A stretch of DNA of 64,000 bases from Paracoccaceae bacterium (GCA_047610385.1 JBLGAC010000008.1:23455-87454), one strand, 5' to 3'; positions 2,444 to 57,695 are shown, counted from the stretch's first letter. Notes: generated from the sequence alone by a model not told the origin. Made by a program: numbers and translations.

Positions 2444-3322
2444 TCAGGCGGCGCGACGACGGCGCGACATCACGCCCAAAAGCCCAAGGCCACCCAGCAT
2501 CAACGGCAGCGCCGCCGGAACCGGAACCGCAGAGATGGCGCGCCCGTAGGTGATGTTGTCGATCAGCACCCATTCGCCGCAATTGCCGGCAGAGCCCGGA
2601 TCGCAGGGGGTCCCGTCGCCACCCGACTCGGCCGACAGCACAAACGTGTCGGTGAGCGTGAGGTAGGAGATGCCCGCGGTCTGGATGCCATAATACTGAC
2701 CATCGCTGGCGGCGTTGATCGCGGGCACGCCGATATTCAGATCCTCGAGCAGCAGGCCAGCGCTGTCATATGCGGCCAAAACCCAGTCGCCATCGTTGGC
2801 GCCAAAGTTGAATGCAAAGGATTCAACAACCGTGTCGAATTGAAACAGAAACTGGTTGGCGTGGTCTGGCTGGAAAGTGACGTTATTGTAATCCGCCTTT
2901 TCCCAGTTGGTCAGGAAGTTCGCCGTAGTGTTGTAGGACTCACCCCCAGTGTATTCGAGATAGTTGAACCGTTGAACACCCGAACTGAAGAACGTGTTGA
3001 AGTCGAATTCCGTCCGCACGATTTCCGGGGTCACGTACAGCGCCGCAGCCGCGCCGCCGTTCAAAGTGTCGACGCCACTGATGGTCACGCCGCCGGGAGC
3101 AGAGATGGAGGTCCGCGCAGTGGTGCGCGGATCAACGTCGTCAGTGGTGCTCGGAAACGAGACCGGCAGAGCGTCTGTGGCGATCGATTCAAAATCAATC
3201 ACAGTTCCGCCCAAGATCGCGTCAGTCGGCACACCAAAACCAACGATCGGGCTCGCGTTCGACGCCCCGACCAAAAGGACGCTGCCGATCACCCCCGTGA
3301 TGGCAGCCCTAACGAATGTCAT
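2444..3322 (-). CDS. Secreted VPLPA-CTERM (PEP-CTERM-like) sorting-domain protein 1
   Basis: Signal peptide MTFVRAAITGVIGSVLLVGASNA; C-terminus VPVPAALPLMLGGLGLLGVMSRRRRAA (motif + TM helix + Arg cluster). Start moved to the ATG at 3322. Confidence 0.9.
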   Translation of the reverse strand: MTFVRAAITGVIGSVLLVGASNASPIVGFGVPTDAILGGTVIDFESIATDALPVSFPSTTDDVDPRTTARTSISAPGGVTISGVDTLNGGAAAALYVTPEIVRTEFDFNTFFSSGVQRFNYLEYTGGESYNTTANFLTNWEKADYNNVTFQPDHANQFLFQFDTVVESFAFNFGANDGDWVLAAYDSAGLLLEDLNIGVPAINAASDGQYYGIQTAGISYLTLTDTFVLSAESGGDGTPCDPGSAGNCGEWVLIDNITYGRAISAVPVPAALPLMLGGLGLLGVMSRRRRAA

Positions 3323-3367
3323 TGGGCAATCCTTCCCCACACGATTTACTAAAACACACGGGACGAC

Positions 3368-3395
3368 ATTACCGTTGAAGTTCACGAAATGTCAA
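3368..3395 (-). promoter_or_regulatory. sigma70-like promoter for VPLPA-CTERM gene 1
   Basis: Minus strand TTGACA-N16-GGTAAT about 45 nt upstream of the ATG. Confidence 0.5.
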
Positions 3396-3441
3396 TCTTT
3401 CGCCCATGCAAACAGGGTTAAAACAGCACCTTTGGCGCTGT

Positions 3442-4356
3442 TCACAAGGCCTCCGGGGCTGGAAAAACGCGGCTGGGATGGATCTCACCGGCTTTCCAGG
3501 TGCCGATCGCCACCGGTGCCCCGTCATGAGAGGCCCAGACCTCGTCGCCGTACTCTCCGGCGAATCGGGTCTTGCCAGCGCGGCCCTGGCGCAGATGCGC
3601 CGCTGCGACAGCGTCGACCACATGTTCCTCAAGGTCGTTCAGCCCGGCTTCGGTCGGCAGCAGTTTGGCCAGCTGGTCGGGATCGTCGCGCAGCGCCTCC
3701 AGCTGTTCCCAGGTCACGGCGTCAGACAGCTCAAACGGACCGGCCCAGACGCGGCGCAGCGCGCTCACATGCCCAAAGCAGCCGAGGTCCAGCCCCAGAT
3801 CGCGCGCGATGGAGCGGACATAGCCACCCTTGCCGCAGACCATTTCCAGAACCGCGTGATCGAGATCGGGCATGTCGATCAGCGTCAGGCTTTCCACGAA
3901 CAGCGGGCGGGCCTTCAGCTCCACCTCCTCTCCCGCGCGGGCCAAAGCATAGGCACGCTCACCATCCACCTTCACGGCGGAGAACGCGGGCGGGGTCTGC
4001 ATGATGTCGCCGGTATAGGCGGGCAGCGCGGCCAGAATCGCATCGCGCGTCGGACGCTGATCTGATTGTGCGATCACCGGACCTTCGCGGTCATCGGTGT
4101 TGGTCTGCTGGCCCCAGCACACGGTGAAGCGATAGGCTTTCAGCGCATCGGTGACATAGGGCACGGTTTTGGTCGCCTCGCCCAACGCGATGGCCAGAAT
4201 GCCGGTCGCCAGCGGGTCGAGCGTGCCAGCATGCCCGGCCTTCTGGGCCTGAAACACCCAGCGGACCTTGGCCACCACAGAGGTGGACCCGACATTGAGC
4301 GGCTTGTCCACCACCAGCCAGCCGCTGATCGGGCGGCCCTTCTTGCGTCGCGCCAT
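3442..4356 (-). CDS. truB: tRNA pseudouridine(55) synthase
   Basis: [19 protein letters not shown]...[14 protein letters not shown]; follows rbfA. Confidence 0.96.
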
Positions 4357-4390
4357 GGGGGCGTCGTCCTTCTTGGTCTTATGGAAAAAG

Positions 4391-4828
4391 TCAGTGTTCG
4401 TCGGGCGCCGCATCGCTGGGTGCCGCATCGTCAGGCGCTTCGACATCGGCGCGCACGCGGTCCAGGTTCAGCAGGCGTCGCGCTTCGTCCATACGGTCGT
4501 AGCTGTCATCGCGCTGAAAGCTCAGGTCCGGCGAGAATTTCATGTTGACGTCTTTGCTCAGCGCACGCCGCAGCTCACCTTTGTTGCGGCGCAGGGCTTC
4601 GATCACCTCGTCGGCGTTGATGCCGCCCAAAGGCAGCACAAAAGCCGTTGCGCTGCGCAGATCGGGCGTGACGCGGACCTCCGACACCGTGATCGACGCG
4701 CGCGACAGCGCATCATCATGCAGATCGCCGCGCAACAGAATCTCAGCCAGCGACCGGCGGATGGTTTCGCCTACCTTGAGCTGCCGCTGCGAGGGGCCAG
4801 CGCCGCCCCCGGTCGGTTTCTTGGCCAT
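4391..4828 (-). CDS. rbfA: Ribosome-binding factor A
   Basis: [19 protein letters not shown]...[17 protein letters not shown]...PDLSFQRD. Confidence 0.95.
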
Positions 4829-4924
4829 TGTCCGAGCCCTTTGCAAAATGCGCCCCCTGTGGAGGCTTTCAAAGACAAAGGGCCGCCCGTCGCCGGGCGG
4901 CCCCTGTTCAGCGTTCCGACAAGA

Positions 4925-7900
4925 TCAGAGCGTGCGCTCGATCTCCTCAGTGGTGAAGATTTCGATGACGTCGCCGGGGCGCACATCTTCGTAGCGTTCA
5001 AAGGCCATGCCGCATTCCTGACCGGAACGGACCTCATTGACCTCATCCTTGAAGCGCTTGAGCGTCTTGAGCTTGCCTTCGTGGACCACCACATCGTCGC
5101 GCAGCAGGCGCACACCGGCCGATTTACGCGCCACGCCTTCGGTGACATCGCAACCAGCAACGTTGCCGACATGAGAGACCTTGAAGACCTCTTTGACCTT
5201 GGCGTAGCCGATAAAGGTCTCGCGGATTTCGGGGGACAGCAGGCCAGCGGCCGCAGCCCTCACGTCATCAACGAGGCTGTAGATCACCGAATAGTACCGG
5301 ATCTCCACACCCTTCTGGTGCGCAGCTTCGCGGGCCGACGCGTTGGCACGGACGTTGAAGCCGATGATCGGGGCGCCCGACGCTTCGGCCAAGGTGACGT
5401 CCGATTCCGTGATGGCACCAACGCCGGAATGCAGAACCCGCACCCGGACCTCGTCGTTGCCAATCTGCTCCAGCGCCTGAACGATCGCTTCGTTGGAGCC
5501 ACCGACATCCGATTTGACCACGATGGCCAGTTCGGACATCGCATTGGTGGCCTTGGCCTGCGCCAAAAGCTGATCGAGCGAGGTGCGCGACCCGGCTGTG
5601 ACCTGCTTGTCGCGCGATACGCGCTGACGATAATCAGCTATTTCGCGGGCGCGGCCTTCGTCTTCGACCACGTTCAGCACGTCGCCAGCTGAGGGCGTGC
5701 CCTGAAGGCCCAGAACTTCGACCGGAACCGAAGGACCGGCCTGTTCGACGCGCTCACCCTTGTCGTTGATCAGCGCACGCACGCGGCCCCACTGCTCGCC
5801 CACGACAAAGATGTCGCCGCGCTTCAGTGTGCCCTTCTGGACCAGGACCGTCGCGACAGGGCCGCGGCCGACGTCCAGCTTGGCCTCGATCACTGCGCCT
5901 TCGGCGTAGCGGTCGGGGTTGGCTTTCAGTTCGAGCAGCTCAGCCTGAAGCGCAATGGCCTCCAGCAGCTTGTCGAGCCCGGCGCCGGTTTTTGCCGACA
6001 CCTCAACATCAAGCACGTCGCCTGACATCGCTTCGACGACGACCGAATGCTGAAGCAGTCCGGTGCGCACCTTTTGCGGGTCTGCGCCGGGCTTATCGCA
6101 TTTGTTGATCGCGATGATCATCGGCACGTTCGCGGCCTTGGCGTGGTGGATCGCCTCGATCGTCTGGGGCATGACCGAATCATCGGCCGCGACCACCAGA
6201 ACCACGATGTCCGTCACTGAGGCACCGCGGGCGCGCATCGACGAGAACGCCGCGTGGCCCGGGGTGTCGAGGAACGTGATCAGCGCACCGTTGTCCGTCG
6301 TCACCTGATAGGCGCCGATGTGCTGGGTGATGCCGCCTGCCTCGCCAGAGACCACGTTGGCCTTGCGAAGCGCGTCCAGCACCGAGGTCTTGCCGTGATC
6401 GACATGACCCATGACCGTGACGACGGGGGGCCGGGTCTTGAGATCCTCAACCTTGTCGGCTTCGGTCTCAATCGCGGTTTCCACGTCTGAATCCGACACA
6501 CGGACCATGCGGTGGCCAAATTCTTCGACCAGCAGTTCTGCGGTGTCCGCATCGAGCGTGTCGTTGATGGTGACCATCACGCCAGAGTTGAACAGCGACT
6601 TGATGACGTCAGCAGCACGTTCCGCCATGCGGTTCGCAAGCTCCTGCACTGTGATGACGTCGGTCACCTTCACGTCGCGCACGACCTTCTCGCGCTCAAC
6701 CTGATGGCCACCCTTGCGCTTGTCGCGCTCCGCCCGGCGACGCATGGCCGCCATGGAGCGGTGACGCCCGCCCTCATCACCCGACGTGGCGCGGGAAATG
6801 GTGAGCTTGCCTGCACGGCGGCCACGATCATCGCGGCCAACGGCGGTGCGCGGTTTGCGCTGGTCGTCGCTGACGGGCGCAGGTGCGCCGCCGGGCGTGC
6901 GGCGACGCGGGGCCGTACGCTCTTCACCCGGCTCGGGCGGCAGGCCCGGCTCAACATTGACGGGGGCCTTGGCACCGGCGGGACGTGCCCGGGCAGCCTT
7001 GGCCGCCTCAGCGGTCTTTTTCTTGGCCTCAACCTCCGCAGCGCTGGCGGCTTCCGCCTCCTCACGCTCACGGCGGATCAGCGCCTCTTTCTCCTTGCGC
7101 TCACGGTCATCTTTTTCGGCGCGCAGGCGGTCCAGCTCATCACCGCGTGCGCGGGATTCGGCCTCGGCGCGGGCACGACGAGCGCCTTCGTTGCGCTTGG
7201 CCATTTCCAGCGCGCGACGACGGCGATCAACTTCCTCGGTCGACAGATTCTGACCACCGGCGCTGCGGGCAGGGCCAGCTGCGGCGGGCGCACGGCCCTT
7301 GTTGGCATCGCCGGGGCGGCTGCCGGGACGTGCGGGACGCGCACCAGCGCCGGGCACGGTGGCACGGCGTGCGCCGCCATCGGCCTGGGGTGCGGTGCGC
7401 GGTGCCGCGGCCTTGACCACGGTTTTGGGCTTGAGGACCGGTTTCGGCGCATCTGCTGCGCGCGAAATGATCTTGGGTCCGGGCGCAGCCGGGATCAGCG
7501 GTGCCGCGACTTTTGCGGGCGCCGTTTTGGCCATAGGCTCTGCCTTGGCAACGGTCTCTGCCTTGGCAACAGGTTCCACCTTGGCAGCAGACTCTGCCGT
7601 GGCAGCAGCCTCCACCTTGGGCGCGGGCGCCTTGGCGTCTGCCGCAGGCACCGCGCTTTTGGCGGGGGCCTCGGCCTTGGCGACGGCATCAACCGGCGCT
7701 TCGGGCGCAGGCTCTGCAGCCTTTTCGGCCGCGGCGCGGTCGGCAGCCTTCTGGGCCGCGATGGCGCGTGCCATGCGGATGCGGCGCTCTGCCTCTTCGG
7801 CTGAGACCGGCGTCACCACTTTGCCTTTGGGCGCACGGGCGCGCGCAGCGGCCTCGGGCGCTTCGGCCTCGGGGCGCTTTTCAGCCGGGTCGACCGGGCG

Positions 7901-8077
7901 TGCGCCACCAGCGGGCGCAGTGCCCGGCGTGATCACGCGTTTGCGCTTGGTCTCAACCACGACGGATTTCGACCGGCCATGGCTGAAGCTCTGGCGCACC
8001 CGGGTAGGTGTCCCGCCAGCGCCGCCTCGCGCACGCAGGTTACCGCCCGATTTGTTGTCGTCGTCCGTATCGCTCAT
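4925..8077 (-). CDS. infB: Translation initiation factor IF-2
   Basis: G-domain motifs [17 protein letters not shown]; long Ala/Pro/Lys-rich N-terminus. Confidence 0.98.
7538..7620 (-). repeat. Degenerate 18-nt coding tandem repeat in infB
   Basis: Plus strand CTCTGCCTTGGCAACGGT-like units encoding [18 protein letters not shown] hexapeptides. Confidence 0.6.
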
Positions 8078-8721
8078 GCACCGTTCCTCACCTCGATTAC
8101 GTCGAGGTCCGTTTCATCATGCGTCGCGGCGCAAGGTCTGAACCCGGAAAGCCGTTTCGCCTCGCGCAACACGCGCAGCGTCACGCCGCCTCTATCAAGA
8201 GCGGCGTGTATCACAAATTCGCGGCCGAAAGCCAAACCCAATTCGGTGCTGTCGAGACAACGGATGATCCCCGCCTCTCCAGCCATGGGCCGCAGCTTGG
8301 CCTGTCCCTGGTCAGATCCGTCCCGCGCGCCGATCAGCGCGCCGACTGGACCCTTCTTCAACCGGGCCTTTACCTTCTCGAAGCCGGTGACCGCAAGCCC
8401 TGCCTTTCTGGTGAGGGACACGGCCTCAGCCGCACGGGCGGCCAAAAGGGTCTCGAGCAGCTCCGCCAGACCGTCCGGCACGATGGCCTGGGCCTTGGCA
8501 GCACGAGAGAAAAGCCGCTTCTTCACAGCCGTTTCAATCGCATCCCGGGTCGAGGTGACCCAGATCCCACGACCTGGCAATTTCTCTGCCAGATCAGGCG
8601 TCACTACGCCGTCGGGCGACAGCACGAAGCGGATCATCATGTCGGTCAGACCACTTTCACCGCTGACAATGCAGCGGCGTTCAGGGTCGTCCTTATCGGT
8701 CCGTCGTCCGCCGCGCGGCAT
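8074..8721 (-). CDS. RNA-binding protein, DUF448/YlxR (RnpM-like) plus L7Ae-like domain
   Basis: [12 protein letters not shown]...IRFVLSPDG...KLPGRGIWV; lies between nusA and infB; GGAG RBS. Confidence 0.88.
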
Positions 8722-8849
8722 CTTTTCTCCTGGCACTGACGCATGGCCCGCATGGGCGGATGCGCCGCGGACCAGTTGGCCCACGTTAAGCAATATAGGG
8801 TGGGGCCGCCATGGGGCGAATCCCCGTCGGCGGCCCGGATTTCATGGGA

Positions 8850-10724
8850 TCAGACGCGCGGGGCGTCTTCACCCGACTCATCTGAGGCTGGCTCATCTGA
8901 GGTCGGCTCATCCTGATCAGCCTCGGCTTTGGGCGACTCGGCTTCGGCCTCGGGCGTGTCCGTCACGCTCTCGTCCGCCTCAGAGGGCTCCGCGTCAAGG
9001 GCATCGTAGTCCAGCGTGACTTCCTCAAGCCCGTCCTCGGCCATCTCCTCGGCGTCGAGCGAGTGGTCCTCGGGCGGGGTGTCTTCGTCCACTTCCTCGC
9101 CCTCAGCGCCGTCTTCCTCGCCCTCGGCATCTTCCTCGGCGTCGTAGTCACCCTCTTCCTCGCCCTCAAACACCACGTCAGAGGCGTCCACAAGGCCGAC
9201 GATCACGCGTGCGGTCATCACCAGGCTTTGGGCTTCCTCAAGCGACATGTCGAAGGCTTCGAGCAGGCCATCATCCTTGATTCGCTTGCCATCGACCAAG
9301 GACCAGCCGCCGGCCAGTTCCCAATCCGCACAGGTCGCAAAGTCGTGGAGCGTGAGCACGCCGTCCTTGGCCAGCGCCAGAATCATCTGGGGGGTCAGGC
9401 CGTCGAACTCAATCAGGTCTTCCTCAACGCCCAGATCGCGGGATTCGTCGAGCGCCTTGGCGTTCATTTCCTCAAGGCTTTCGCGGGCGCGGGCCTGAAG
9501 GTCTTCGGCGATCTCAGCACTGACACCATCAAGGCCGGTCAGCTCGCTCGCATCGACATAGGCGACTTCCTCAAGCGTGGTGAAGCCTTCGGAGACCAGC
9601 AGCTGCGCGACGATTTCATCGACGTTCATGGTGTCCATGAACATCTGCGACCGCTCGGCGAACTCGGCCTGGCGACGGGTGGATTCGTCTTCCTCCGTCA
9701 GGATGTCGATGTCCCAGCCGGTCAGCTGGCTGGCCAGACGCACGTTCTGGCCGCGGCGTCCGATGGCCAGCGACAGCTGCTCATCCGGCACCACCACCTC
9801 AATGCGGCGGGCGTCTTCGTCCATGACGACCTTGGACACCTCAGCAGGCTGAAGCGCGTTGACGATGAAGGTCGCCGCGTCATCATTCCACGGGATGATG
9901 TCGATTTTCTCGCCGCCCAGCTCAGATACCACGGCCTGAACACGGCTGCCGCGCATACCAACGCAAGCACCGACCGGATCGATGGAGCTGTCATAGGAAA
10001 TCACGGCGATCTTGGCGCGCGAACCGGGATCGCGGGCCACGGCCTTGATCTCGATGACGTTGTCATAGATCTCCGGCACTTCCATTTTGAACAGCTCGGC
10101 CATGAATTCAGGCGCCGTGCGCGACAGGAAGATCTGCGGGCCACGCTGTTCGCGCCGCACGTCTTTGACGAAGGCACGGATACGGTCGCCGGTGCGGAAC
10201 ATTTCGCGCGGGATAAGTTGGTCGCGGCGCAACATGCCTTCGCCCCGGCCGATGTCCACGATGACATTGCCGTATTCCACGCGTTTGACCGACCCATTGA
10301 TGATCTGGCCGATGCGGTCCTTGTATTCCTCGTACTGACGCTCACGCTCAGCTTCGCGGACCTTCTGCACGATGACCTGTTTGGCGGTCTGCGCAGCGAT
10401 GCGGCCAAATTCCAGCGTCGGCAGTGGCTCGCTCATCACGTCGCCGATTTCGGCGTCGGGGTTGAGGGCCTGCGCATCGATCAGCGCCATTTCGGTGAAG
10501 TGATTCTCCACCTCCTCGACCACTTCGCGGGCGCGCGACATGTTCAGCACGCCGGTTTTGCGGTCGATGTCGCAGCGGATGTCGTACTCCGCGCCAAAGC
10601 GCGACCGCGCGGCCTTGGCGAGGCTGTCTTCCATCGCTTCAATCACCAGTTCGGGATCGATCAGCTTTTCACGCGCGACGGCGTCGGCGATCTGGAGCAG
10701 CTCAAGTCTGTTGGCGCTGACCAT
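8850..10724 (-). CDS. nusA: Transcription termination/antitermination factor NusA with a long acidic C-terminal tail
   Basis: [20 protein letters not shown]; S1 and KH domains ([24 protein letters not shown]). Confidence 0.97.
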
Positions 10725-10741
10725 TGTCGGTCTCCCGCAAT

Positions 10742-11380
10742 TCAGTGGCGACGGACGGGGGCGGCGTCGCCCTCGTCATCGGGGGAATCGGTGTCTTCGT
10801 CGTCTTCATCCTCGGCAGCCTCGTCGAAGGCTTCCGGATCGTATTCTGAGCCTTCGGCACCCGGGCCAACCTTGCGGCCCTTCAGCGACTGTTCGATCAG
10901 CGCGTCGGTCAGCACCAGCTTGGCGTCGGAAATCCATTCGAAATTCAGGCCGATGATGCCCTCAGCGATGCGGATCAGCACTTCGCCATCCTCAACGCCT
11001 TCAAGCTCGCCGCGAAAGCGGCGGCGGCCATCGATCAGTTCCGCGGTTTCGATCTTGGCTTCCCAGCCGACATAGCGCTCAAACTGCTCAAGCGTGGTCA
11101 GCGGGCGGTCGATGCCGGGGGATGACACCTCAAGGGCATACATCCCGTCGATCGGATCCTCAACGTCGAGGACGGCCGACATGGCGCGCGACAGCTCGGC
11201 GCAGTCGTCGATCTCCATCGTGCCGTCGGGACGCTCGGCCATGACCTGAAGCGTCTTGCGTTCCTTTGAGCCGATCATAAGCCGGACGCGGACGAGGCCG
11301 AATCCCATCCCCTCCACCGTTGGGCGGATGATGTCGGCGACGGTGCGGTCCAGTGCGGCTTTGGCGACGAGATCGTTCAA
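10742..11380 (-). CDS. rimP: Ribosome maturation factor RimP
   Basis: [10 protein letters not shown]...DCAELSR...[14 protein letters not shown]; TTG start; first gene of the nusA operon. Confidence 0.95.
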
Positions 11381-11408
11381 GAGGGGCGAATCCTTGGGCT
11401 AAAATGAC

Positions 11409-11438
11409 GAAAGGCGGGCCATAGCGGCCCGCCCTTTC
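11409..11438 (-). terminator. Terminator-like hairpin in the rimP leader
   Basis: Minus strand GAAAGGGCGGGCC-gctat-GGCCCGCCTTTC then GTCATTTT, about 30 nt before the rimP start. Confidence 0.55.
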
Positions 11439-35552: not shown

Positions 35553-36128
35553 ATGCGTTATGTGTCCAGGGCTATGCTGTCCGCCGCCGCGATGTGTTTC
35601 ATCGCAGGCGCCGCAGAAGCCGCCGTCCATAAATACACCATCACTGGCGAAGCCTCCGGCATCTTCGCTGGCACGACCTTCAACGCCGCCACCTTTACCA
35701 TCAGCATCATGGCTGATGATGCGAATTTTTTCAACGTCAGCGCGACCACCTCCAGGTGCAGCCCTGTATTTGAGATCGCCGGATTTTACGACGCAACTGT
35801 CCTCGATGGTGCCGATTTAGGCTACAATTCCGACAATAACGCTGTTTTCATCTCGCATGATGCAAAAGCAGATATCTTCGATTTCTTCGTTCCATTCAGC
35901 TTTGTGTTGAACGTGACTTTCACCAATGTGCCCGGTACGGGGGGCTTTGCCCTCGGCCAGTTCAACAACGTCGCCACGACTGGTGGGGACCTGTCCTTTG
36001 ATACGTCCAGCGACGTGCTGTTCTCCACAAACTTCGTGGGCGCCAGCGTGCCGCTGCCCGGTGCAGGCCTTCTGCTGCTGGGCGGAATGGCGGCCTTCGC
36101 CGTGGTGGGGCGTCGCCGCGCCGCCTGA
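35553..36128 (+). CDS. Secreted VPLPA-CTERM sorting-domain protein 2
   Basis: Signal MRYVSRAMLSAAAMCFIAGAAEA; C-terminus VPLPGAGLLLLGGMAAFAVVGRRRAA; visibly lower GC. Confidence 0.9.
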   Translation: MRYVSRAMLSAAAMCFIAGAAEAAVHKYTITGEASGIFAGTTFNAATFTISIMADDANFFNVSATTSRCSPVFEIAGFYDATVLDGADLGYNSDNNAVFISHDAKADIFDFFVPFSFVLNVTFTNVPGTGGFALGQFNNVATTGGDLSFDTSSDVLFSTNFVGASVPLPGAGLLLLGGMAAFAVVGRRRAA

Positions 36129-36150
36129 TCGCAGGCCCTGCGTTTGATGC

Positions 36151-36185
36151 AAAAAAAAGGGCGGCCCGGCGGGCCGCCCTTTTTT
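36151..36185. terminator. Bidirectional intrinsic terminator
   Basis: A8-GGGCGGCCC-ggc-GGGCCGCCC-T6. Confidence 0.9.
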
Positions 36186-36206
36186 CTGTCGACCAAGCGC
36201 GCTGCG

Positions 36207-40130: not shown

Positions 40131-40153
40131 GGCGGGGTCTCCTTCGCGCTGAG

Positions 40154-40194
40154 AAATGCGCTCTGTCGGATTGGAAATCAAGAATGATTCCGAA
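40154..40194 (-). promoter_or_regulatory. sigma32-like promoter overlapped by an Irr (ICE)-like box upstream of nfuA
   Basis: Minus strand CTTGAT-N15-GCGCATTT; TTCGGAA-TCA-TTCTTGA overlaps the -35 element. Confidence 0.4.
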
Positions 40195-40461
40195 CGCCCC
40201 CGGAGGCGGGCCCCAAGAACTAGCGCCGAGGTGGCGACGCCGGAGCGCCCCGGACCGCGTAGATCTGCAAGTCATCAGCCCATCGGAGGGCGTTGTCAAT
40301 GATTTCGTCGAAGCCTGCGCCAAGGTGGGCGACGCCGGAATTGAGGCACTCGCTATATGACTTCGGCGGCGGCGGTTCCGCGCCCGAACCGCAGTTTTCG
40401 GTCAGTCGCTGGTCTGCGCGAACCCGTGTCGGATGTGCATGCCGCGCGTCCGGCTGTCCGG

Positions 40462-41148
40462 TCAGGCGTCGCGGCGGCGACGGTGCAGGAAGGCGAAAGC
40501 ACCGAGGCTGCCGAGCAGCAGCATCGCGGCGGGGGGTGCGGGGACGTCGGCGGTGAGCGAGCCGTACTGCACATAGTCGAAGACGAGCCACTCGGTGCTG
40601 GTTAGCGTGAACTGCAAACTGCTAAAGGACGTGTCGCTGAACACGCCGAAAAAGCCGCCCGCCGTGAGGCCGCCGCCGCCTGCAGGCACCGGCCGGAAAA
40701 TGTTGATCAGTTCATTGCCTGCGGCGTCGGCGTAGTCGATCGTCGTCGCCAGTTTGTCGAAATTGGCCCACTCGATGGCGAAAGCGTTGATCGGCTGGAA
40801 AAAATCAAAATAGATCACGTCTGCGAGCGTTATGATGAATTCGTTGCCTCCGTCCTGCATTGCAAGCGTTTCAGGGCGCACATAAAACGAATTGGCTTGG
40901 TCACGGGTGAGGGCGAAGTCGTCAAAGACCAACGGCGGGGCGTAGCTCCCACGGGAGAGGGAGTTAAATCCCTCAGTCGACACCGTACCGCCGAAGGATT
41001 TGGCCCAGGCGGCCCGCTCAGCGCTGATCAGGGCCACGTCGGTCGGCCACTTGCCGTCAGCCACGAAATACGACGTTGCCGCCTACACGGCACCGGGCAG
41101 GCCAAGCAGCAGCGCCGCGGCGGAGAAAATTCCTGAATAGGAGGGCAT
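40462..41148 (-). pseudogene. VPLPA-CTERM sorting-domain protein 3 with an in-frame TAG in the signal peptide
   Basis: From the ATG at 41148 (GAGGG RBS): MPSYSGIFSAAALLLGLPGAV*AATSYFVADG...; stop at 41083-41085. The rest is intact and ends VPAPPAAMLLLGSLGAFAFLHRRRRDA. Confidence 0.85.
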
Positions 41149-41322
41149 GATGGACCCTCAATCATGTTCTGCTGAAATGATGAGTCGAATTGATTGGCAC
41201 GTTCTTGATAAAGGGTAACCCTTGCCGCACCGTCCGGCAAGCTTGCCGCGGGCGCGAAGGCGTTGCCCCGCCCACGCCCGGCGGACGGGCACCCGAAATC
41301 CGCGTCCGCACGCCTCATGCGA

Positions 41323-43090: not shown

Positions 43091-43759
43091 ATGTTCCAGT
43101 TTCCCGCCCTGCCGCCCGTGCAGCCCCGCCACAAGCAGGTGGCCTTTGGGCTGACCGCCATCTTCGTGGTGATCGAGGTGGTGTTCCAGCTCTCTGATGT
43201 CGGGATCCTGCCGCAGGGCCTCAGGTGGAACGCCTACACGAAATTTTCGTTCTACGCGCCGTGGTTCGAAGACATGATCGCGGGGCGCCGCGCGCCGTCG
43301 CAGGCCATGTGGAACATGCTGACATATGCGTTCCTACACGGGTCCATGACGCATCTTTTGATGAATTGCGGGGCGTTTCTGGGGCTGGGGCTGGTGACGC
43401 TCAGGATCTTTGGCACGCGGCTGTTCATGCTGTTTTTTGTGGTGACGGCGGTTGGTGGGGCGCTGGCCTTCGGGCTGATGTCGAATTCGGAAATGCCGAT
43501 GGTCGGCGTGTCGGGCGTGGTGTTCGGCCTGATCGGCGTGCTGAAATATGCCGAGCTGGCGTTCATTCGTCATCAGGGCGGGCGGTATCAGCCGGTGGCG
43601 ATCCGCAAATATGTCACCTCTTTGGCCATTCTGGCAGCGGTGAACGTCGCCATCGCATGGCTGCTGAAGGACATTATGGCGTGGCAGACCCATCTGGGCG
43701 GCTTCGTCGCTGGGTGGATCGCTGCGTGGTTGGTGGTCCCCAAGCCTGCCAAAACGTGA
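43091..43759 (+). CDS. Rhomboid family intramembrane serine protease
   Basis: [25 protein letters not shown] (GxS), AWQTHLGGF. Confidence 0.88.
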
Positions 43760-49764: not shown

Positions 49765-49891
49765 GATGCGTCCTCGCGTTCCGCCGGGATACATCCCGGT
49801 CCGAGCTTGATCACCAGCGCGTCGCAGCGGGACGCAGGCGTCCTGCGCGATCTTGCGCTCTTATCAAGGGTCGTGCCATGACGAAGCCCAT

Positions 49892-50854
49892 ATGAAAAGC
49901 GATGATGATGCAATGGTGGGCCCGGACGGGGCACCCGGCGCGCCGATGGCGCAGCGCGGCCACAGCGGTGCGGCCTGGGCCGGGGCTGGGCGCGCGCCAA
50001 TCCCGCCGGGCTTGCATCTGGTGGCAACGCCGATCGGCAATGCTGGGGACATCACGCTGCGGGCGCTTGACACCCTTGCGCGCGCCGACGTGCTGGCGGC
50101 CGAGGACACCCGCACCCTGCGCCGCCTGATGGAGATCCACGGCGTTGCGCTGAACGGTCGCCCGCTGATCGCCTATAATGACCATAACGGCCCGCGCCGC
50201 CGCCCACAGCTGCTTGAACACCTCGCGGTGGGCCGGTCGGTCGCCTATTGCTCAGACGCGGGCACGCCGCTGGTGTCTGATCCGGGCTGGAAACTGGCCT
50301 CTGAGGCTGTCGCGGCGGGCGCGGACATCACCGCGGCACCGGGTGCCAGCGCGGTGCTGGCGGCGCTGTGCGTGTCGGGGCTGCCGTCAGACCGGTTCCT
50401 GTTCGCGGGGTTTCTGCCGCAAAAGGCCGGCGCGCGGCGAACGGTGCTGGCTGAACTGGCGCAGGTTCCCGCGACGCTGGTGTTCTACGAAGCGCCGCGC
50501 CGGGCCGCTGAGACGTTGCGCGCGATGGCCGAAATCCTCGGCCCCGACCGCCCCGCTGCATTCTGCCGTGAATTGACCAAGCGCTTTGAACAGGTGCGCC
50601 GCGGCTCTGTCGCGGAGCTGGCTGAGGCGCTGGGCGCTGAGCCTGCCGCCAAGGGCGAGGCGGTGTTGGTGATCGGCCCACCGGATGCTGATGCCGGGCT
50701 TGGCGATGCTGAAACCGTGGATGAACAGTTGCGCGCGGCGCTGGCACGAGGGTCGGTGAAGGACGCCGCCCGCGACGTTGCAGCGCTGACGGGGCGCAAG
50801 CGGGCGGATCTGTACGCGCGGGCGCTGGAATTGCGGGGAGAAGATCGTTCATGA
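49892..50854 (+). CDS. rsmI: 16S rRNA (cytidine1402-2'-O)-methyltransferase
   Basis: LHLVATPIGNAGDITLRA, AAEDTR, SDAGTPLVSDPG, FYEAPRR, RELTKRFE. Confidence 0.95.
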   Translation: MKSDDDAMVGPDGAPGAPMAQRGHSGAAWAGAGRAPIPPGLHLVATPIGNAGDITLRALDTLARADVLAAEDTRTLRRLMEIHGVALNGRPLIAYNDHNGPRRRPQLLEHLAVGRSVAYCSDAGTPLVSDPGWKLASEAVAAGADITAAPGASAVLAALCVSGLPSDRFLFAGFLPQKAGARRTVLAELAQVPATLVFYEAPRRAAETLRAMAEILGPDRPAAFCRELTKRFEQVRRGSVAELAEALGAEPAAKGEAVLVIGPPDADAGLGDAETVDEQLRAALARGSVKDAARDVAALTGRKRADLYARALELRGEDRS

Positions 50855-50906
50855 AATGTTTGCTTTGTTGGGGGATCTTGAGGTGAACTGATTAAGGACG
50901 CCGCCC

Positions 50907-51353
50907 ATGCCCTTTGACGCGATCATGCCCGACATCGTCCTGACGCCGCCGCCCCCTGCGCCGACGCTGTTCGCGCGGACCAAACCGCGCGGCGGCGGCG
51001 CGATGGCCAAGGCCGCGGGTGCCGCGGCTGAAAACGCCGCCCTCAGGCGCTATCGAAAAGGTGGCGCGATGTTTCTTGCGCAGAACTGGCGCGCGCGGAA
51101 AATTCATGGTGGCGGCGAAATCGATCTGGTGCTGGAACGCGGCGGCGTCGTGATTTTTGTGGAGGTCAAAGCCCGGCGCACTTTGCCTGAGGCTTATAAT
51201 TGCATCCGCCCGTCGCAGCTGCGCCGCATCATGGCCGCGGCCGAAGGCTATATGACCGATTCCGGACGCTGGGGCGGGGACATGCGCTTTGACATCGTGC
51301 TTTGTGATCGCTACGGCGCTATGGAGAAGATTGAGAATATCTGGATCGACTGA
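50907..51353 (+). CDS. YraN (UPF0102) family protein
   Basis: GEIDLV...VIFVEVKAR...MRFDIV. Confidence 0.9.
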   Translation: MPFDAIMPDIVLTPPPPAPTLFARTKPRGGGAMAKAAGAAAENAALRRYRKGGAMFLAQNWRARKIHGGGEIDLVLERGGVVIFVEVKARRTLPEAYNCIRPSQLRRIMAAAEGYMTDSGRWGGDMRFDIVLCDRYGAMEKIENIWID

Positions 51354-51370
51354 CGGGAGAAACCGCGCGG

Positions 51371-51994
51371 ATGACGCAGGAAAAACAGCTTTCATCTGTG
51401 CGCGTGTTGGCTGTTCTGGTGGGTCTGTCCGTGCTTTCTGCATGCTCTGCGCAGGGGACTGTGATTGGCTTAGGCGCGGTGGTGGGACGCATTTTGCTGC
51501 AGGAACGCGATGCCGGTGATGCGCTGAGCGACACGGACATTGAAATCGGCATTCTGACGCGCATCCTGGAATTCTCGCCAGAGGCCGCGGCCACCGTTTC
51601 GGTGACCTCGATTGAGGGACGGGTGCTGCTCACGGGCGATGTGGACGGTGCTGAGGACGGCGCGCGCATTGTTGAAATTGCGTGGATCTCGCCTCAGGTC
51701 GGGTCAGTCGCGAATGAGCTGACCGTGGGCTTGGGTGGCGGGATCGGGCAGGCGTCCGATGATTTGCAGCTTGCCGCCGCGATTCGCCTGCGTTTGGTGC
51801 GCGATCTGGGCATTGCGGACATCAATTTCATCATCGCGGTGGATGGCGGGGTGGTGCATCTTGCCGGTCTGGCCCGGGATCGGGAGGAACTGCGCTCCGT
51901 GATCTGGCATGTTCGCCGCACTGCCGGAGTGGTCCATGTCGTCAGCCATGTGCTGACGCTCGACGACCCGCGCCGCGTGGCGCGCGGCGTCTGA
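51371..51994 (+). CDS. BON-domain lipoprotein (DolP/YraP-like)
   Basis: Lipobox LSAC; two BON-like repeats ([15 protein letters not shown]); rsmI/lpoA/yraN context. Confidence 0.8.
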
Positions 51995-52103
51995 CACGGC
52001 CAGCGCTGCGCCCTGCCACTGGCGCCGCGCGCTTCGGGGGGTTACATCCCTTGCATCGGCCCGTCGCGGTCGCCCCGGAACACGCCCGAGGAGGGAGCCC
52101 CGC

Positions 52104-53048
52104 ATGAGCCTATCCGTCGCCATCCAGATGGACCCCATCGCGGGGATCAACATCGATGCTGATTCCACCTTTCGCATGGCCGAGGAAGCGCAGGCCCGCG
52201 GCCATCGCCTGTTCTACTATCACCCTGACGATCTGGTGTTCGACCGCGGCCGCGTGCTGGCCAGCGGCTGGCCGCTGTCGGTGCGGCGGGTGAAGGGCGA
52301 TCATTTCAGCCTAGGTGACAAGCAGACCGTCGATCTGGCCGATTGGGATGTGGTGCTGCTGCGCCAAGATCCGCCTTTCGACATGTCCTATATCACCAAC
52401 ACCCATCTTCTGGAACGGATTCACCCCAAGACGCTGGTGGTGAACGACCCGTTCTGGGTGCGCAATTGCCCCGAAAAGCTGATGGTGCTGGATTTCCCGG
52501 ATCTGACCGCGCCCACCCTGATCTCCCGCAGTCTTACGGCCCTGCGCGGGTTCAAGGCGGAGCACGGCGACATCATTCTCAAGCCGCTTTACGGCAATGG
52601 CGGCGCGGGGGTGTTCCGGCTGACCTCGGACGACCGCAACCTGAATTCGCTGCATGAATTGTTCACCGGCATCAACCGGGAGCCGTTGATCGCGCAGAAA
52701 TTCCTGCCCGCCGTGTCCGAAGGCGACAAGCGCGTGATCCTGATCGACGGGGAACCGGTCGGCGCCATCAACCGTGTGCCCGCCGCTGGGGAAACCCGGT
52801 CCAACATGCATGTGGGCGGGCGGCCTGAGGCGAGCAAGCTGACCGCGCGTGAGCGTGAGATCTGCGCCGCCATCGGCCCGGTTTTGAAGGAACGCGGGTT
52901 GATCTTTGTTGGCATCGACGTGATCGGCGGTGTGATGACGGAAATCAACGTCACCTCACCCACCGGGATTCAGGAGCTGGAGCGGTTCGACAGCGTCAAC
53001 ATCACCGAGACGTTGTGGCTGGCGATTGAGGCGCGCCGCGCAGGCTGA
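52104..53048 (+). CDS. gshB: Glutathione synthetase
   Basis: [50 protein letters not shown]. Confidence 0.97.
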
Positions 53049-53065
53049 CCACGCCGCTGCGCATC

Positions 53066-53107
53066 AAAAAAAGACCCGCCGCGATCCGATCGCGGCGGGT
53101 CTTTTTT
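53066..53107. terminator. Bidirectional intrinsic terminator
   Basis: AAAAAAAGACCCGCCGCGAT-cc-GATCGCGGCGGGTCTTTTTT. Confidence 0.9.
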
Positions 53108-53166
53108 GGTGTGGGCCTTTTCACGGAATGCCTGCGGAGTGCCGCAGTTGCATCAGCCCGTCGGCG

Positions 53167-54612
53167 TCACTGCACGAGGCTTGCGCCCAGCACCGCTCCT
53201 GCGGTTTGACCGTCCGTCGGGGCCGTCTGGAACAAGTCATCATAGATTGAGGTGAGCGGCATGTTGCAGCCCGACAGATTCGACCCTCCGCCGAGCGTGA
53301 GCTTGCCCGAGGTTTCGATGTACATGCCACGCGCGTCCTTCAAACCGCCGCCTGGATCGAATCCCGGCGCGGCACCCATCAGGCCGGAGACGCTGGTGGC
53401 AGCATTGCCGCCACCGATGGACAAGTTATCTTCGGAAAAAAGGTAGACGCGGTAAAAACCGTCACCGCAAAGCTTCTCACTGTCGCCCAACGTCGCATTG
53501 CCAGTGAAGTTGAGGCTGCCTCTGCTGAAAAAGAAAATGTTGTCGAATTTTATGCCATTTCCGCCAGAAATGCCCATCTTCCCGTTTACGATGAAGGCTG
53601 AGTTCGAGATCTCGGTGCCACCAGTGAATTGCACGCCATGGTCGACAAGATAGATGTAATTTTCCCTCAGGTGGGAATTCTCTACGTTCCACGAGCCCAT
53701 GTTGACACGCTGGATACGGGCGCCAATGAGGTGGGGGGGCAGAAGGGCGAGCTGCTCTTGGGTTTCATTGTCGCCCCATATCTTGCCCGCATTGTTCACC
53801 GTCGTAAAAATCAAGTCGAACAGGCCACCGGTAATTTCGGGCAGCAGCTTTGGTTCGATGATCGCTTCGACCACGACGTCCTCTTCCACGCCGCAAGCCA
53901 GCGGGCTGATGCGGTTGAGGTCAGCATCGGGGGAGATGATGTGAGAGCCGACTTCGAAGCAGTTGTTGCCGGTGACATTCACGCCCAAATCCGCATAGAG
54001 GCAGACGCCGGGGCCAAAATTGCTGTTGCCGCCGGTTTTGAGCTCTCTGCTGAGCTCTCCCGAGGTCATGATCATGACGCTGGGGCACGCGGTGAGATGA
54101 TTGACCGGGGGCGGCGCGGCGCGGCCTGAGGTCTGGGCGGTCGCGGCGGCGCCCACTTCCCAAACGCTGGGACCTATCAGGCGCAGCAGATAGGTCGGCA
54201 CCGCATTGCCGCGGTCGGAGGAACGTCCAGCGACGATCCGCACCATTTCGGCGGGCTCGCTATCTGCGGCTTCGATAAAGGCACCGGTGTCGGCGTCGAG
54301 CATGCCGAACCGTATGTCGGACACGTTGATCACGGCGCCGTGCTCTGATGGGGGCATGTTGCGCTCAGCCAGCGACACGGCGGCGGTGCGTGCTGCGGCG
54401 CGGTCGTCGATCTGCATCACTGCGGCCAGTGCCGAAGCATCGGCCACCGATTGCAGGCGTGATTTCATGTTGAAGGCATTCGCGGCATCGACGGCGACGC
54501 CGCCAAGCGCAAGGCAACCGATGAACCACATGGCCGACCATGCAGCGGCCGCGCCGCTTTCGTCACGCGCAACTGCGCCGATTGCAGAGATTGACCTGAA
54601 TACGCGGGTCAT
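53167..54612 (-). CDS. TadG-like Flp pilus minor pilin/adhesin with a large C-terminal domain
   Basis: RDESG prepilin-like site, GGVAVD...RLQSVADASALAA, then NAVPTYLLRLIG; Gly/Asn/Ser-rich C-terminal half. Confidence 0.82.
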   Translation of the reverse strand: MTRVFRSISAIGAVARDESGAAAAWSAMWFIGCLALGGVAVDAANAFNMKSRLQSVADASALAAVMQIDDRAAARTAAVSLAERNMPPSEHGAVINVSDIRFGMLDADTGAFIEAADSEPAEMVRIVAGRSSDRGNAVPTYLLRLIGPSVWEVGAAATAQTSGRAAPPPVNHLTACPSVMIMTSGELSRELKTGGNSNFGPGVCLYADLGVNVTGNNCFEVGSHIISPDADLNRISPLACGVEEDVVVEAIIEPKLLPEITGGLFDLIFTTVNNAGKIWGDNETQEQLALLPPHLIGARIQRVNMGSWNVENSHLRENYIYLVDHGVQFTGGTEISNSAFIVNGKMGISGGNGIKFDNIFFFSRGSLNFTGNATLGDSEKLCGDGFYRVYLFSEDNLSIGGGNAATSVSGLMGAAPGFDPGGGLKDARGMYIETSGKLTLGGGSNLSGCNMPLTSIYDDLFQTAPTDGQTAGAVLGASLVQ

Positions 54613-54625
54613 TTCAAACGCCTTC

Positions 54626-55033
54626 CTATGATGCAGCAGGTGGCTGGACCTCCATGACCATGGTCATGTCTGCCTTAATCTCTCGGTCCCCCAGAAACCC
54701 TCTTCCGAACACGATGGCCTCGGAGAAGGGTGCCTTGACCCGGGTCGTCACAAATCCGTCCAGCACGACCACCTCGACGTTGAGCGTCGTGCCGTTTGTC
54801 AGTGCAGTCTGCGCCCAAGTTTGCGCTTCGACATTGGTCATGCGGCCCAAAGACACCAGCCGTGACGCGTCGCGCGCGACGTCAAACATCCGCGCTTGCA
54901 TGTTCAGTAGCAGCGATACGTCCGCAATGACACCGAGGAGGATAATGAAAACCGGCAGCCAAATCACAAAATCTATCGTTGCGTTGCCGTTTTCGCGGCG
55001 CAGCGTAGATCTGACATTCCTCCAGAGTGTCAT
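54626..55033 (-). CDS. TadE/TadG family pseudopilin
   Basis: RRENGNATIDFVIWLPVF...DVARDASRLVSLG. Confidence 0.85.
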   Translation of the reverse strand: MTLWRNVRSTLRRENGNATIDFVIWLPVFIILLGVIADVSLLLNMQARMFDVARDASRLVSLGRMTNVEAQTWAQTALTNGTTLNVEVVVLDGFVTTRVKAPFSEAIVFGRGFLGDREIKADMTMVMEVQPPAAS

Positions 55034-55198
55034 AGCGAAAACAAGCCTGTCACATGCGCCGGACGCCCGGCGGCGGGTACGAAGCGGTGGGACGACGTTC
55101 AGACCCGCCCGCGTTACGTATCCTTATTGCCCATGCCCTCACGTCGGGCAACGGTTTGCTTATAATTTTCCCTCAATTGGGCCATTAAGTGACCTCCA

Positions 55199-55217
55199 TG
55201 AACCGAAATTTAACCAT
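55199..55217. promoter_or_regulatory. CtrA-like box 1
   Basis: TGAA-N7-TTAACCAT (one mismatch to TTAA-N7-TTAAC). Confidence 0.6.
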
Positions 55218-55316
55218 TTTTCCAAAAAAACAACCAGCGATTGACGACGCATTGGATTAAATGCAGCGCCTTGGGCATCGGCGGCATGGGATGGCGCGAA
55301 TCGCACCGTTTCTGTT

Positions 55317-55332
55317 GTTAACGATTCATAAA
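55317..55332. promoter_or_regulatory. CtrA-like box 2 with an internal GANTC site
   Basis: Reverse strand TTTA-N7-TTAAC; GATTC at 55323-55327 lies in the spacer. Confidence 0.6.
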
Positions 55333-55379
55333 CCTTAATTCAGCGAAGATCTTCCAATGTCTCAGCGAAAGGGTTTCCC

Positions 55380-56891
55380 ATGACGTCGCGCTGCTGGTCG
55401 GTTGCGTTCCATGGTTTGGACCCGCGCCCTGTGGACGTTCAATGCCAACTTACCGAAGGGTCGCCCGGTTTCGCAATTGTCGGGCTGCCGGACAAGGCGG
55501 TGGCGGAATCGCGCGAACGGGTGCGCGCCGCGCTGTCGGCGCTGGGCCTGTCGTTGCCTAGCAAGCGGGTCGTCATCAACCTCGCCCCTGCGGATCTTCC
55601 CAAAGAAGGCGCGCATTTCGACCTGCCGATCGCGCTGGCGCTGATGGCTGAATTGGGTGCGATCCCCGGCGATGAAACCGCCAATTGCGTCGCCATGGGG
55701 GAATTGTCGCTTGATGGTCAGATCGTGGCGGTCAGCGGTGCGCTGCTGGGCGCGCTGTCGGCCGCAAGCGAAGGGCGCGTGTTCGTCTGCCCCGCCGCCT
55801 GCGGGCCTGAGGCCGCGTTGGTCGACGGCGTTGAGGTGTTGGCCCCGCCGTCGCTGGTCGCGCTGGTCAACCATTTCAGTGGCCGCCATCCCTTGCTGCC
55901 CCCCGCCCCGGCTGAGGCATGGGATGAGCCGCCCGAAGAAGACCTGGCCGATGTCAAAGGTCAGGAAAAGGCGCGCAGGGCCCTGGAGATCGCCGCCGCG
56001 GGGGGCCACAATCTGCTGTTCGTCGGCCCGCCGGGTGTCGGGAAATCCATGCTGGCCCGCGCTTTGCCCGGCATCCTGCCGCCGCTTTCCGCGCGTGAGG
56101 CGCTGGAGGTGTCGATGATGCGCTCCCTCAGCGGCAAGTTCGTCGAAGGGCGGTTGGCCCGGCGGCGTCCGTTTGAAAAGCCGCACCACACGGCGTCCGT
56201 CGCTGCGGTCATCGGGGGGGGGCGCTGGGCCAAGCCCGGGGATCTGTGCATGGCCCATCGCGGGGTGTTGTTCCTGGATGAGATGGCCGAATTCGCGCGC
56301 CCGGTGCTGGAAAGCCTGCGCCAGCCGCTGGAATCGGGCGAATGCGTGATTTCACGCGCCAACGCTCATGTGCGCTATCCCAGCCGCGTGCAGCTGATCG
56401 GTGCCATGAACCCGTGCCGCTGCGGGCATCTGGCGGACGCGGCCAGGGCATGTTCGCGCGCACCAAAATGCGGCGAGGAATATCTGTCGCGCCTGTCGGG
56501 CCCGCTGCTGGACCGGATCGATCTGCAGGTTGAAACCCCGCGGATCAGCGCGTCGCAACTGGCCCGCCTGCCGCAGGGGGAGCCAAGCGCCGCTGTCGCC
56601 GAACGCGTCGCTGCTGCGCGCGATGTGCAGGCCGCGCGCTGGGCGGATCGTGAGGATGGGTTCCTCAACGCCCATGCTGACGGCCGGATGCTGGACGCCG
56701 CCGCGGCGATGGACACGGACACCCGCGATCTTTTGGGGCGCGCGGCGGACAAGCTGGACCTGTCGGCGCGGGGCCTGACGCGGGTGATCCGTCTGGCGCG
56801 CACCATCGCTGATCTGAGCGGAGAGCCCTGCGTGACCCGCCCCCACATCGCCGAAGCGGCGGGGTATCGCGGCGCGCTGAGCAAGTGGTGA
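55380..56891 (+). CDS. comM: YifB/ComM family Mg-chelatase-like AAA+ ATPase
   Basis: IVGLPDKAVAESRERV, INLAPADLPKEG, GPPGVGKS, LFLDEMAEF, AMNPCRCG, LSGPLLDRID. Confidence 0.9.
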   Translation: MTSRCWSVAFHGLDPRPVDVQCQLTEGSPGFAIVGLPDKAVAESRERVRAALSALGLSLPSKRVVINLAPADLPKEGAHFDLPIALALMAELGAIPGDETANCVAMGELSLDGQIVAVSGALLGALSAASEGRVFVCPAACGPEAALVDGVEVLAPPSLVALVNHFSGRHPLLPPAPAEAWDEPPEEDLADVKGQEKARRALEIAAAGGHNLLFVGPPGVGKSMLARALPGILPPLSAREALEVSMMRSLSGKFVEGRLARRRPFEKPHHTASVAAVIGGGRWAKPGDLCMAHRGVLFLDEMAEFARPVLESLRQPLESGECVISRANAHVRYPSRVQLIGAMNPCRCGHLADAARACSRAPKCGEEYLSRLSGPLLDRIDLQVETPRISASQLARLPQGEPSAAVAERVAAARDVQAARWADREDGFLNAHADGRMLDAAAAMDTDTRDLLGRAADKLDLSARGLTRVIRLARTIADLSGEPCVTRPHIAEAAGYRGALSKW

Positions 56892-57002
56892 CGACACGAT
56901 TGTTTTCAATTCGTAAACGTTCATGTATCAGTCACCCATGCGTTTGTCAGGGGCTGCATTTTGGTTGCAGACGCCGCGAACGTGGCCTTGAGGGGAGATC
57001 GC

Positions 57003-57695
57003 ATGCAACGTTCACTATTGCTCGCAGGCGCCGCGGCGCTTGCCATCGGTGCCATGGGCGCCGACCGCGCGTCGGCTGCGATCATGCTGGCCGAACTCGG
57101 CTCCAGCACGGCGCTGGGAAATCTTGACGCAGGGTCGCTCGCCGACAGCGTCGCGACGAGCGCCACAATCAAGAAATTCGACATTCTGTATACGAACGCG
57201 CTTGGCGACACCTCAGGCGGGTACGATATCAGCGGCGAATGGACCTTCGATTTCCAGGTAAGCGATGTGTTGGAAGTCGGCGGCGGCGAGGGGATCTCGT
57301 TTTCGTTCTCGGCAGCCGTGACAGGGAGCTCCAGCCCCGGCGCGTCGGTCTACTATCGGGTCGGCTCGTATCAGGTCGACGCGGAGCTGTCGGACGGCGA
57401 CCGTATCGCGACCGTGACCTTCACCACCCGGGCAGTCGGTGGCGCGCCCGATGATGACGCCGCCGATGTCGCGCTGACGGGCGCCGAGACCTCTCCGTTC
57501 GTTGTCGCTGATCCCGGACTCGGGAATTTTGCAGGCGTTGGCGGGTTTGACTCCTTGAATGTCTATGACGCCATCAACAACAACTTGGCGACGTCCGTCG
57601 GCTATGACCTTCAGACCGACGTGCCGTTGCCTGCATCCGCGCTTTTGCTGTTCGGCGGACTTGCCGGGCTGGCGGGTCTGCGCCGCCGGGGCTGA
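57003..57695 (+). CDS. Secreted VPLPA-CTERM sorting-domain protein 4
   Basis: GGGGAG RBS; signal [25 protein letters not shown]; C-terminus [24 protein letters not shown]. Confidence 0.9.

Follow-up and report, generated by a model that had tools for sequence, protein, structure and literature searches.

Four genes that lie singly among housekeeping genes in a 64-kb stretch of DNA from a Paracoccaceae bacterium each encode a protein with a VPLPA-CTERM-type tail, and raise the question of whether such genes are copies of a mobile cassette or ordinary accessory genes that share a sorting tag. VPLPA-CTERM is the form that the PEP-CTERM sorting signal takes in Rhodobacterales. The stretch (G000:C8:23455-87454, hereafter the window) is part of a 4.09 Mb draft genome of 88 contigs with 64.6% GC that is 99.94% complete. 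An initial annotation took the four genes, here g1 to g4, as members of a heavily expanded family of perhaps hundreds of copies, turning over fast and spreading as solo cassettes by an unknown route. The genes belong to the already known VPLPA-CTERM sorting-tag class; their solo placement among housekeeping genes, their divergence and their turnover were upheld, while the proposed scale and new route of mobility were not. We consider it probable that g1-g4 encode secreted VPLPA-CTERM cargo proteins and are accessory genes occupying permissive junctions, with bodies that diverge fast and patchily and with exchange by ordinary recombination.

All four genes had the predicted architecture of signal peptide, acidic body and VPxP-transmembrane-Arg tail. 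In the truB/rpsO interval, g1 (2444-3322, minus strand) encodes a 292-aa VPLPA-CTERM protein from its ATG; g2 (35553-36128, plus strand) encodes one of 191 aa between a sensor histidine kinase gene and the convergent miaB, and g4 (57003-57695, plus strand) one of 230 aa between comM and mutS. The fourth, g3 (40462-41148, minus strand), lies in the usp/nfuA interval, has a VPLPA-like tail and occupies a single frame interrupted at codon 22 by a TAG (41083-41085, minus strand), which the initial annotation did not mention. This stop falls at the predicted signal-peptidase site and severs the signal peptide from the body in this strain, where g3 is read from its sequence as either a pseudogene or a 200-aa open reading frame (ORF) lacking a signal peptide. 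Proteins identical to the products of g1, g2 and g4 are recorded in public collections. The signal peptides, called by inspection of the N-termini, are of Sec type in all four genes, and in each tail the motif VP[LVA]P precedes a hydrophobic helix (about 18 residues) and a run of arginines before the stop codon (VPVPAALPLML...RRRRAA in g1). The curated cut-off of TIGR03370, the NCBIfam model for VPLPA-CTERM, is 25.35 bits; g4 passed it with 30.4 bits by hmmscan and 35.7 bits in a six-frame search, and the corresponding scores were borderline at 23.1 and 26.3 bits for g1 and 23.3 and 26.2 bits for g2. Only g1 passed the Pfam PEP-CTERM model (PF07589, 22.7 bits).

The bodies are acidic, with net charges of -7 to -19, and contain 9-14% Gly, 11-16% Ala, 7-9% Thr and 4-11% Phe, Ser also being abundant. 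As first noted, the genes are lower in GC than their neighbours (57.6-64.1% versus 64-69%; at third codon positions, 70-77% versus 78-82%), but the drop is modest and other stretches of the window without VPLPA genes dip equally low. In the reading that we favour, each of the four genes forms a transcription unit of its own. Consensus scans for promoters and terminators at the four loci gave nothing exceeding shuffled sequences. A GC-rich inverted repeat resembling a terminator hairpin, detected as a self-inverted BLAST match, lies at 36150-36188 between the stop codons of g2 and miaB.

The feature common to the genes, on sequence comparison, is the tag and not the protein, so that g1-g4 would represent four unrelated cargo families rather than paralogues. 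When 41 passengers stripped of their tails were compared all-versus-all by BLASTP, the only links were those of one tandem pair (on contig C1) and one further gene. All four window genes were singletons at a threshold of 1e-3, in agreement with the mutual divergence described initially and at odds with a heavily expanded family; g1 and g2 fall in different, widespread PEP-CTERM cargo families. Full-length homologues of g1 were found in Methylobacter, Thiobacillus, Emcibacter, a Pseudomonadales metagenome-assembled genome and Desulfobacula, at 29-33% identity over the best segment and about 40% over a MAFFT alignment. They keep the N-terminal GGTVIDFE block and the last strand, IDNxT, and have true PEP-CTERM (VPEP) or VPVPA tails; three lineage-specific insertions set g1 apart from them. 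The alignment of g1 to the PepA model NF033554 spanned positions 40-259 of its 261 and scored 29.5 bits, below the equivalog cut-off of 80 and indicating remote similarity only. For g2, a word-indexed search returned no match outside its own cluster, but an exhaustive phmmer search added 126 cluster representatives of about 190-210 aa, full-length at 27-44% identity and including one 67-aa fragment that reaches 75%; most of these relatives have VPEP tails and a minority VPLP or VPVP. Orthologues of g3 in metagenomes are intact, 226-228 aa long and 72-89% identical, and g4 had two metagenomic homologues only (56% and 67% identity). The g3 and g1 families matched in a profile alignment with 93.9% probability (E 1.6e-7), the tail being included in the alignment.

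Genome-wide, 25 TIGR03370 matches exceeded the cut-off and 52 had E<=1, and searching every stop-to-stop ORF with a tail pattern gave 63 matches. A hydrophobicity filter left 43 of the 63 as credible tails of the VPLPA type, together with one VPEID tail. In 28 of the 43 cases the ORF is at least 120 aa long and has a recognizable signal peptide, and in 15 it is short or has no such peptide; one of the tail ORFs is at a contig edge. Instead of hundreds of copies, which would have implied a huge mobile repertoire of surface proteins, the genome thus holds about 43 unrelated tagged proteins. The set numbers in the dozens, is mid-sized and behaves like typical accessory surface genes. The window itself is dense: its four genes in 64 kb amount to a density about sixfold that of the genome (lambda 0.67, Poisson P(>=4) = 0.005), and comparable small groups of tails occur on contigs C9 and C14. 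A fifth VPLPA-CTERM gene (G000:C8:21086-21892) lies outside the window, about 1.6 kb to the left of its start, giving five within 60 kb.

The four junctions were compared with those of a sister species (G001), the one usable genome of the same genus, whose housekeeping DNA is about 75-83% identical, and with those of other genera of the family and of other families. In the sister species the truB/rpsO interval holds a g1 orthologue with a VPLPA tail, 50% identical as compared with 68% for TruB and 80% for S15. The other three junctions are present in the same order on a single contig, and g2, g3 and g4 are missing there. The kinase-miaB gap measures 164 bp versus 774 bp here, with the hairpin kept (window 36155-36182 corresponding to positions 500-528 of locus L021); the nfuA-usp gap holds 558 bp of unrelated sequence versus 1133 bp here, and the comM-mutS gap is 357 bp versus 913 bp. 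No homologue of the g2, g3 or g4 passenger was found anywhere in the sister species or in four other relatives. A comparison of this kind had been proposed in the initial annotation, and it bore out presence or absence at exact junctions for three of the four genes, g1 being the one retained. The hairpin of about 30 nt after g2 also has 94-97% matches on both strands of several contigs of the sister species, and from its sequence it looks like a recurring terminator or REP-like (repetitive extragenic palindromic) element.

Two of the junctions separate genes that are normally adjacent, as had been claimed. In two genera of the family truB and rpsO are 38-58 bp apart, and they are adjacent in other families too; in most genera of the family they flank 1.1-3.3 kb of unrelated genes, none with a VPLPA tail. 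By eye, these occupants resemble alpha/beta-hydrolases, DUF1643-type proteins and repeat-rich secreted proteins. Between nfuA and usp, many genera have only 110-240 bp, as does a neighbouring family of the same order, which makes the g3-occupied state the derived one; in three genera the gap is occupied by other ORFs. On gene content, the truB-rpsO and nfuA-usp intervals (2377-3441 and 40131-41322 in the window; loci L005-L018 and L024-L026) are generic variable spots of the family that are not specific to VPLPA genes. A 357-aa ORF, judged secreted by eye, is among the occupants of these spots in other genera.

Divergence was assessed against a conspecific strain, represented by metagenome-assembled contigs that are 98.9-99.1% identical to the window over 41 kb. 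All four genes are at the same positions in this strain. Overall divergence was 0.90% and that of housekeeping genes 0-1.1%, with mostly synonymous changes, as compared with 3.41% in g1, 3.14% in g2, 4.50% in g3 and 0.84% in g4. The ratios of nonsynonymous to synonymous changed codons (N:S) were 16:11, 13:4, 9:13 and 6:0 respectively, or 44:28 together. Of the 368 mismatches, 85 fell in the four genes, which make up 7% of the aligned length (odds ratio 4.0, p 1e-22). Residues differed at 2 of 108 positions in the tails and at 37 of 739 in the passengers. Nonsense alleles caused by single-base changes segregate as well: codon 22 of g3, TAG here, encodes Ser in the conspecific strain, which has an intact 228-aa allele, and g2, intact here, has Tyr91 changed to TAA in that strain. 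The sister species lacks g2, g3 and g4 at the junctions and in the rest of its genome, and divergence between strains is about fourfold that of the flanks; the fast turnover first suggested is well founded.

The differences between the two g3 alleles are confined to a stretch of about 120 bp. In a further relative (locus L050) the usp protein is 99.4% identical and g3 84%, with the segments encoding the g3 signal peptide and tail at 92-98% DNA identity. The high synonymous divergence of g3 beside near-identical flanks points to alleles that were imported or long maintained, and not to relaxed constraint alone. In the model that we favour, the bodies would diverge fast and patchily, probably through recombination together with selection that is diversifying or relaxed; tag and signal peptide would be conserved, and genes would often be lost or inactivated. 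The contrast between strains, in which bodies diverge about four times as much as their flanks, tags are kept and nonsense alleles occur, makes these genes convenient markers of surface-directed selection in the group. Only one other gene in the window was clearly fast, a Tad-type pilus-assembly gene (53170-54612, minus strand) with 1.59% divergence and 14 N and 8 S changes.

We then considered which enzyme might process the tag. The initial statement that no exosortase is present held for the window but not for the genome, which encodes a single exosortase-family protein (PF09721/TIGR04178). This is XrtE (G000:C6:85338-86984; TIGR04162, 464.6 bits), a fusion of exosortase and CAAX-type protease whose VPEID-CTERM target (37.3 bits) is encoded beside it. 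XrtD, the exosortase that curation assigns specifically to VPLPA-CTERM, is encoded by the sister species as a fusion to EpsI (610.9 bits) within an accessory region of at least 30 kb (G001:C14:49600 to beyond 80000) that has almost no counterpart here (L051/L052). The left flank of this region is syntenic with the interior of contig C9 of our genome, and its right boundary lies beyond the 36 kb examined. A tblastn search of our genome with this XrtD gave no match. At E<=1e-3, TIGR03370 matched 66 times in the sister species and 29 times here.

In a survey of the family that took one genome from each of 81 genera, XrtD scored above cut-off in 19, all of which have VPLPA tails. Eight genomes carry at least 12 tails without XrtD; among these eight, XrtE is present in G006 and in this genome. 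A further six have XrtE alone and no VPLPA tails, so XrtE does not predict tails. Neither XrtD nor XrtE was found in G017 (20 VPLPA tails), G043 (19), G056 (12), G057 (15), G063 (21), G085 (13), G095 (4) or G044 (3); the exosortase signature TIGR04178 was absent from all of these except G063, which gave a weak sub-threshold match only. The best tail scores in these exosortase-less genomes, 42-48 bits, equal those of XrtD genomes. Some of their assemblies are single-chromosome or incomplete, and some of the absences may reflect missing replicons.

A rhomboid-family protease gene (43091-43756, plus strand) lies in the trpS/murJ interval, 2 kb from g3. It was rejected as an alternative sortase on its score of 43 bits against a rhombosortase cut-off of 84 bits, and its phyletic distribution departs from that of the VPLPA-rich genomes without an exosortase, close homologues being absent from G017, G043, G056, G063 and G006. 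Some of its better-scoring homologues in the family are rhomboids directly beside XrtD (G023, G058, G060, G091 and G011) or no more than 3 kb away from it (G008 and G086). Clustering of the ORFs within 6 kb of all tails gave large generic paralogue families, unannotated, and no candidate sorting enzyme.

The reading first proposed, in which a heavily expanded repertoire moves as self-contained solo cassettes by a dedicated mechanism, can draw on the presence or absence of three of the four genes at exact junctions and on the behaviour of g3 over longer distances. A displaced homologue on a metagenome contig, 78% identical, follows sulfotransferase and acyltransferase genes, and its DNA similarity to g3 extends past the ORF by 5 and 19 bp only. 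Two further g3 homologues lie in yet other contexts, one beside an ORF whose product looks, on inspection, like an enzyme of the acyl-AMP-ligase type, the other (locus L046, Logan SRR12912418) as g3-like fragments of 52-79% identity on both strands between plasmid RPA replication-initiator genes. However, the 78% homologue also adjoins a transposase fragment of the IS4/5 insertion-sequence type, so that the displaced copies are found next to known vehicles, and orthologues at 76% and 84% identity retain the same usp-g3-nfuA junction. No hallmark of a cassette was found: domain searches detected no transposase, integrase or exosortase in the window, and the flanks share no repeat; the initial annotation had likewise noted no exosortase, transposase or shared flanking repeat nearby. 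Among the 43 loci, flanks showed no similarity, the tandem pair excepted, and no shared direct or inverted repeats; many of the loci carry a downstream hairpin of their own. A common upstream motif, which the initial annotation had thought worth seeking, did not emerge from k-mer enrichment in 25 upstream regions, which returned AT-rich words and nothing specific. Given also that the copies number about 43, that their passengers are mutually unrelated and that the same junctions carry unrelated non-VPLPA genes in other genera, we regard a dedicated cassette mechanism as highly improbable. The changes of context of g3 homologues alongside ordinary vehicles instead point to conventional transfer. 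The genome also contains a tail gene of the gene transfer agent (GTA) type (G000:C11:55124-56017; GTA_TIM domain, 493 bits, in a 1311-aa ORF), which suggests that it encodes a GTA and makes exchange of small accessory genes via conserved flanks plausible. Gain of the genes and exchange of their alleles would most economically occur by homologous recombination through those flanks, and a GTA could deliver pieces of about 4 kb.

Loss of XrtD offers another explanation of the same turnover, namely that this lineage has lost the XrtD island kept by its sister species and that VPLPA proteins, no longer sorted, now drift and become inactivated. The strong XrtD of the sister species and its absence here by profile and tblastn searches fit such a decay, as do the smaller number of tails (29 versus 66), the 15 of 43 tails in ORFs that are short or without a recognizable signal peptide, the nonsense alleles of g2 and g3, and the excess of nonsynonymous changes in g2 and g4. 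Yet tails and signal peptides are better conserved than bodies, albeit on small numbers; g3 has more synonymous than nonsynonymous changes and a synonymous divergence far above that of its flanks, as befits old or imported alleles, and its orthologues are intact across 72-89% identity. Moreover, 12-21 high-scoring tails are retained in several related genera in which no exosortase was detected, so loss of XrtD is not evidently followed by loss of tails. Decay of orphaned cargo seems unlikely to us. A tentative and somewhat less doubtful proposal is that VPLPA tags remain under selection and are presumably processed without XrtD, in this genome by XrtE acting beyond its VPEID target or by an enzyme not yet recognized. 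At least six related genera have 12-21 strong tails and no detected exosortase-family protein. If true, the proposal would mean a previously undescribed second sorting route for the VPLPA tag. The mismatch between tag and XrtD, the one unexpected feature of the set, offers here and in several other genera a concrete test of whether VPLPA-CTERM sorting requires XrtD.

Several observations weigh against the interpretation of g1-g4 as secreted cargo exchanged by ordinary recombination. XrtD (TIGR04152) was not found in the 88-contig draft, the best profile match of 19.7 bits falling on the XrtE gene. The g3 tail is weak on TIGR03370, at 16.4 bits below the 25.35-bit cut-off, and the counts of signal peptides and of intact genes versus fragments come from a crude heuristic. 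Gain and loss of g2 and g4 cannot be polarized because those adjacencies exist only in this genus. Structural models were of low confidence, with a mean predicted local distance difference test score (pLDDT) of 52.7 for g1 and 43.4 for g3; the latter model was discarded. Export, cleavage and surface display would follow from membership of the class, and recombination with GTA delivery is what we infer.

By analogy with that class, Sec would carry the protein across the inner membrane by means of the N-terminal signal peptide, the C-terminal helix and Arg cluster would anchor it in the membrane, and an intramembrane sorting enzyme would recognize VPxP and cut off the anchor. The acidic beta-sandwich body, probably a binder of the lectin or carbohydrate-binding module (CBM) type, would then pass to the surface or the polysaccharide matrix. 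In the AlphaFold2 (AF2) model of g1, the beta-sandwich core alone was confident. Foldseek with this model gave no match at E<=0.001, the best being CBM6, CBM86 and CBM32 at E of about 0.01, which is not significant. From these fold matches and the remote similarity to PepA, the most likely role would be that of a binder at the cell surface or in the polysaccharide matrix.

Among known systems, VPLPA-CTERM/XrtD (TIGR03370, TIGR04152) is the closest: it occurs in the same bacterial family, has the same tripartite tail and signal peptide as g1-g4 and, as here, has many cargo proteins per genome with unrelated bodies. It differs in that this assembly lacks XrtD and that g1-g4 stand singly among housekeeping genes, unclustered with a sorting enzyme or polysaccharide locus. 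XrtD and XrtE were reportedly defined by Haft et al. in the 2012 volume of J Bacteriol. In the XrtE/VPEID-CTERM system (TIGR04162, TIGR04161), curated as a dedicated one-target system, the target motif of this genome starts VPVPE and so resembles VPVPA. The PEP-CTERM/exosortase A system, with its floc-forming cargo PepA (Haft 2006, PMC1569441; Aquincola study, PMC9850573), shares the tag architecture and a cargo of little mutual similarity, and relatives of g1 and g2 in other classes bear true VPEP tails. Unlike it, g1-g4 have VP[LV]PA in place of PEP, XrtA is absent, and no extracellular polysaccharide (EPS) locus or PrsK/PrsR/sigma-54 context was seen near them. Mobile gene cassettes (integrons, insertion sequences, miniature inverted-repeat transposable elements) differ in having shared boundary repeats or an attachment site and a nearby recombinase or transposase, none of which was found at g1-g4. 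In the literature, one table records a cyclic di-GMP riboswitch before a VPLPA-CTERM gene in Methylophaga, and no other relevant text on VPLPA was found.

In the window, an Rfam scan returned one tRNA as its sole match and no riboswitch. Apart from the VPLPA genes, the window consists of housekeeping genes, with rimP-nusA-infB-rbfA-truB and rpsO-pnp flanking g1. It also contains sdh genes, a branched-chain amino-acid ABC transporter, the sensor kinase gene, miaB, mucR, rimI, tsaB, nfuA, usp, trpS, the rhomboid gene, murJ, glnD, tad genes, comM, mutS and a gene for HU.

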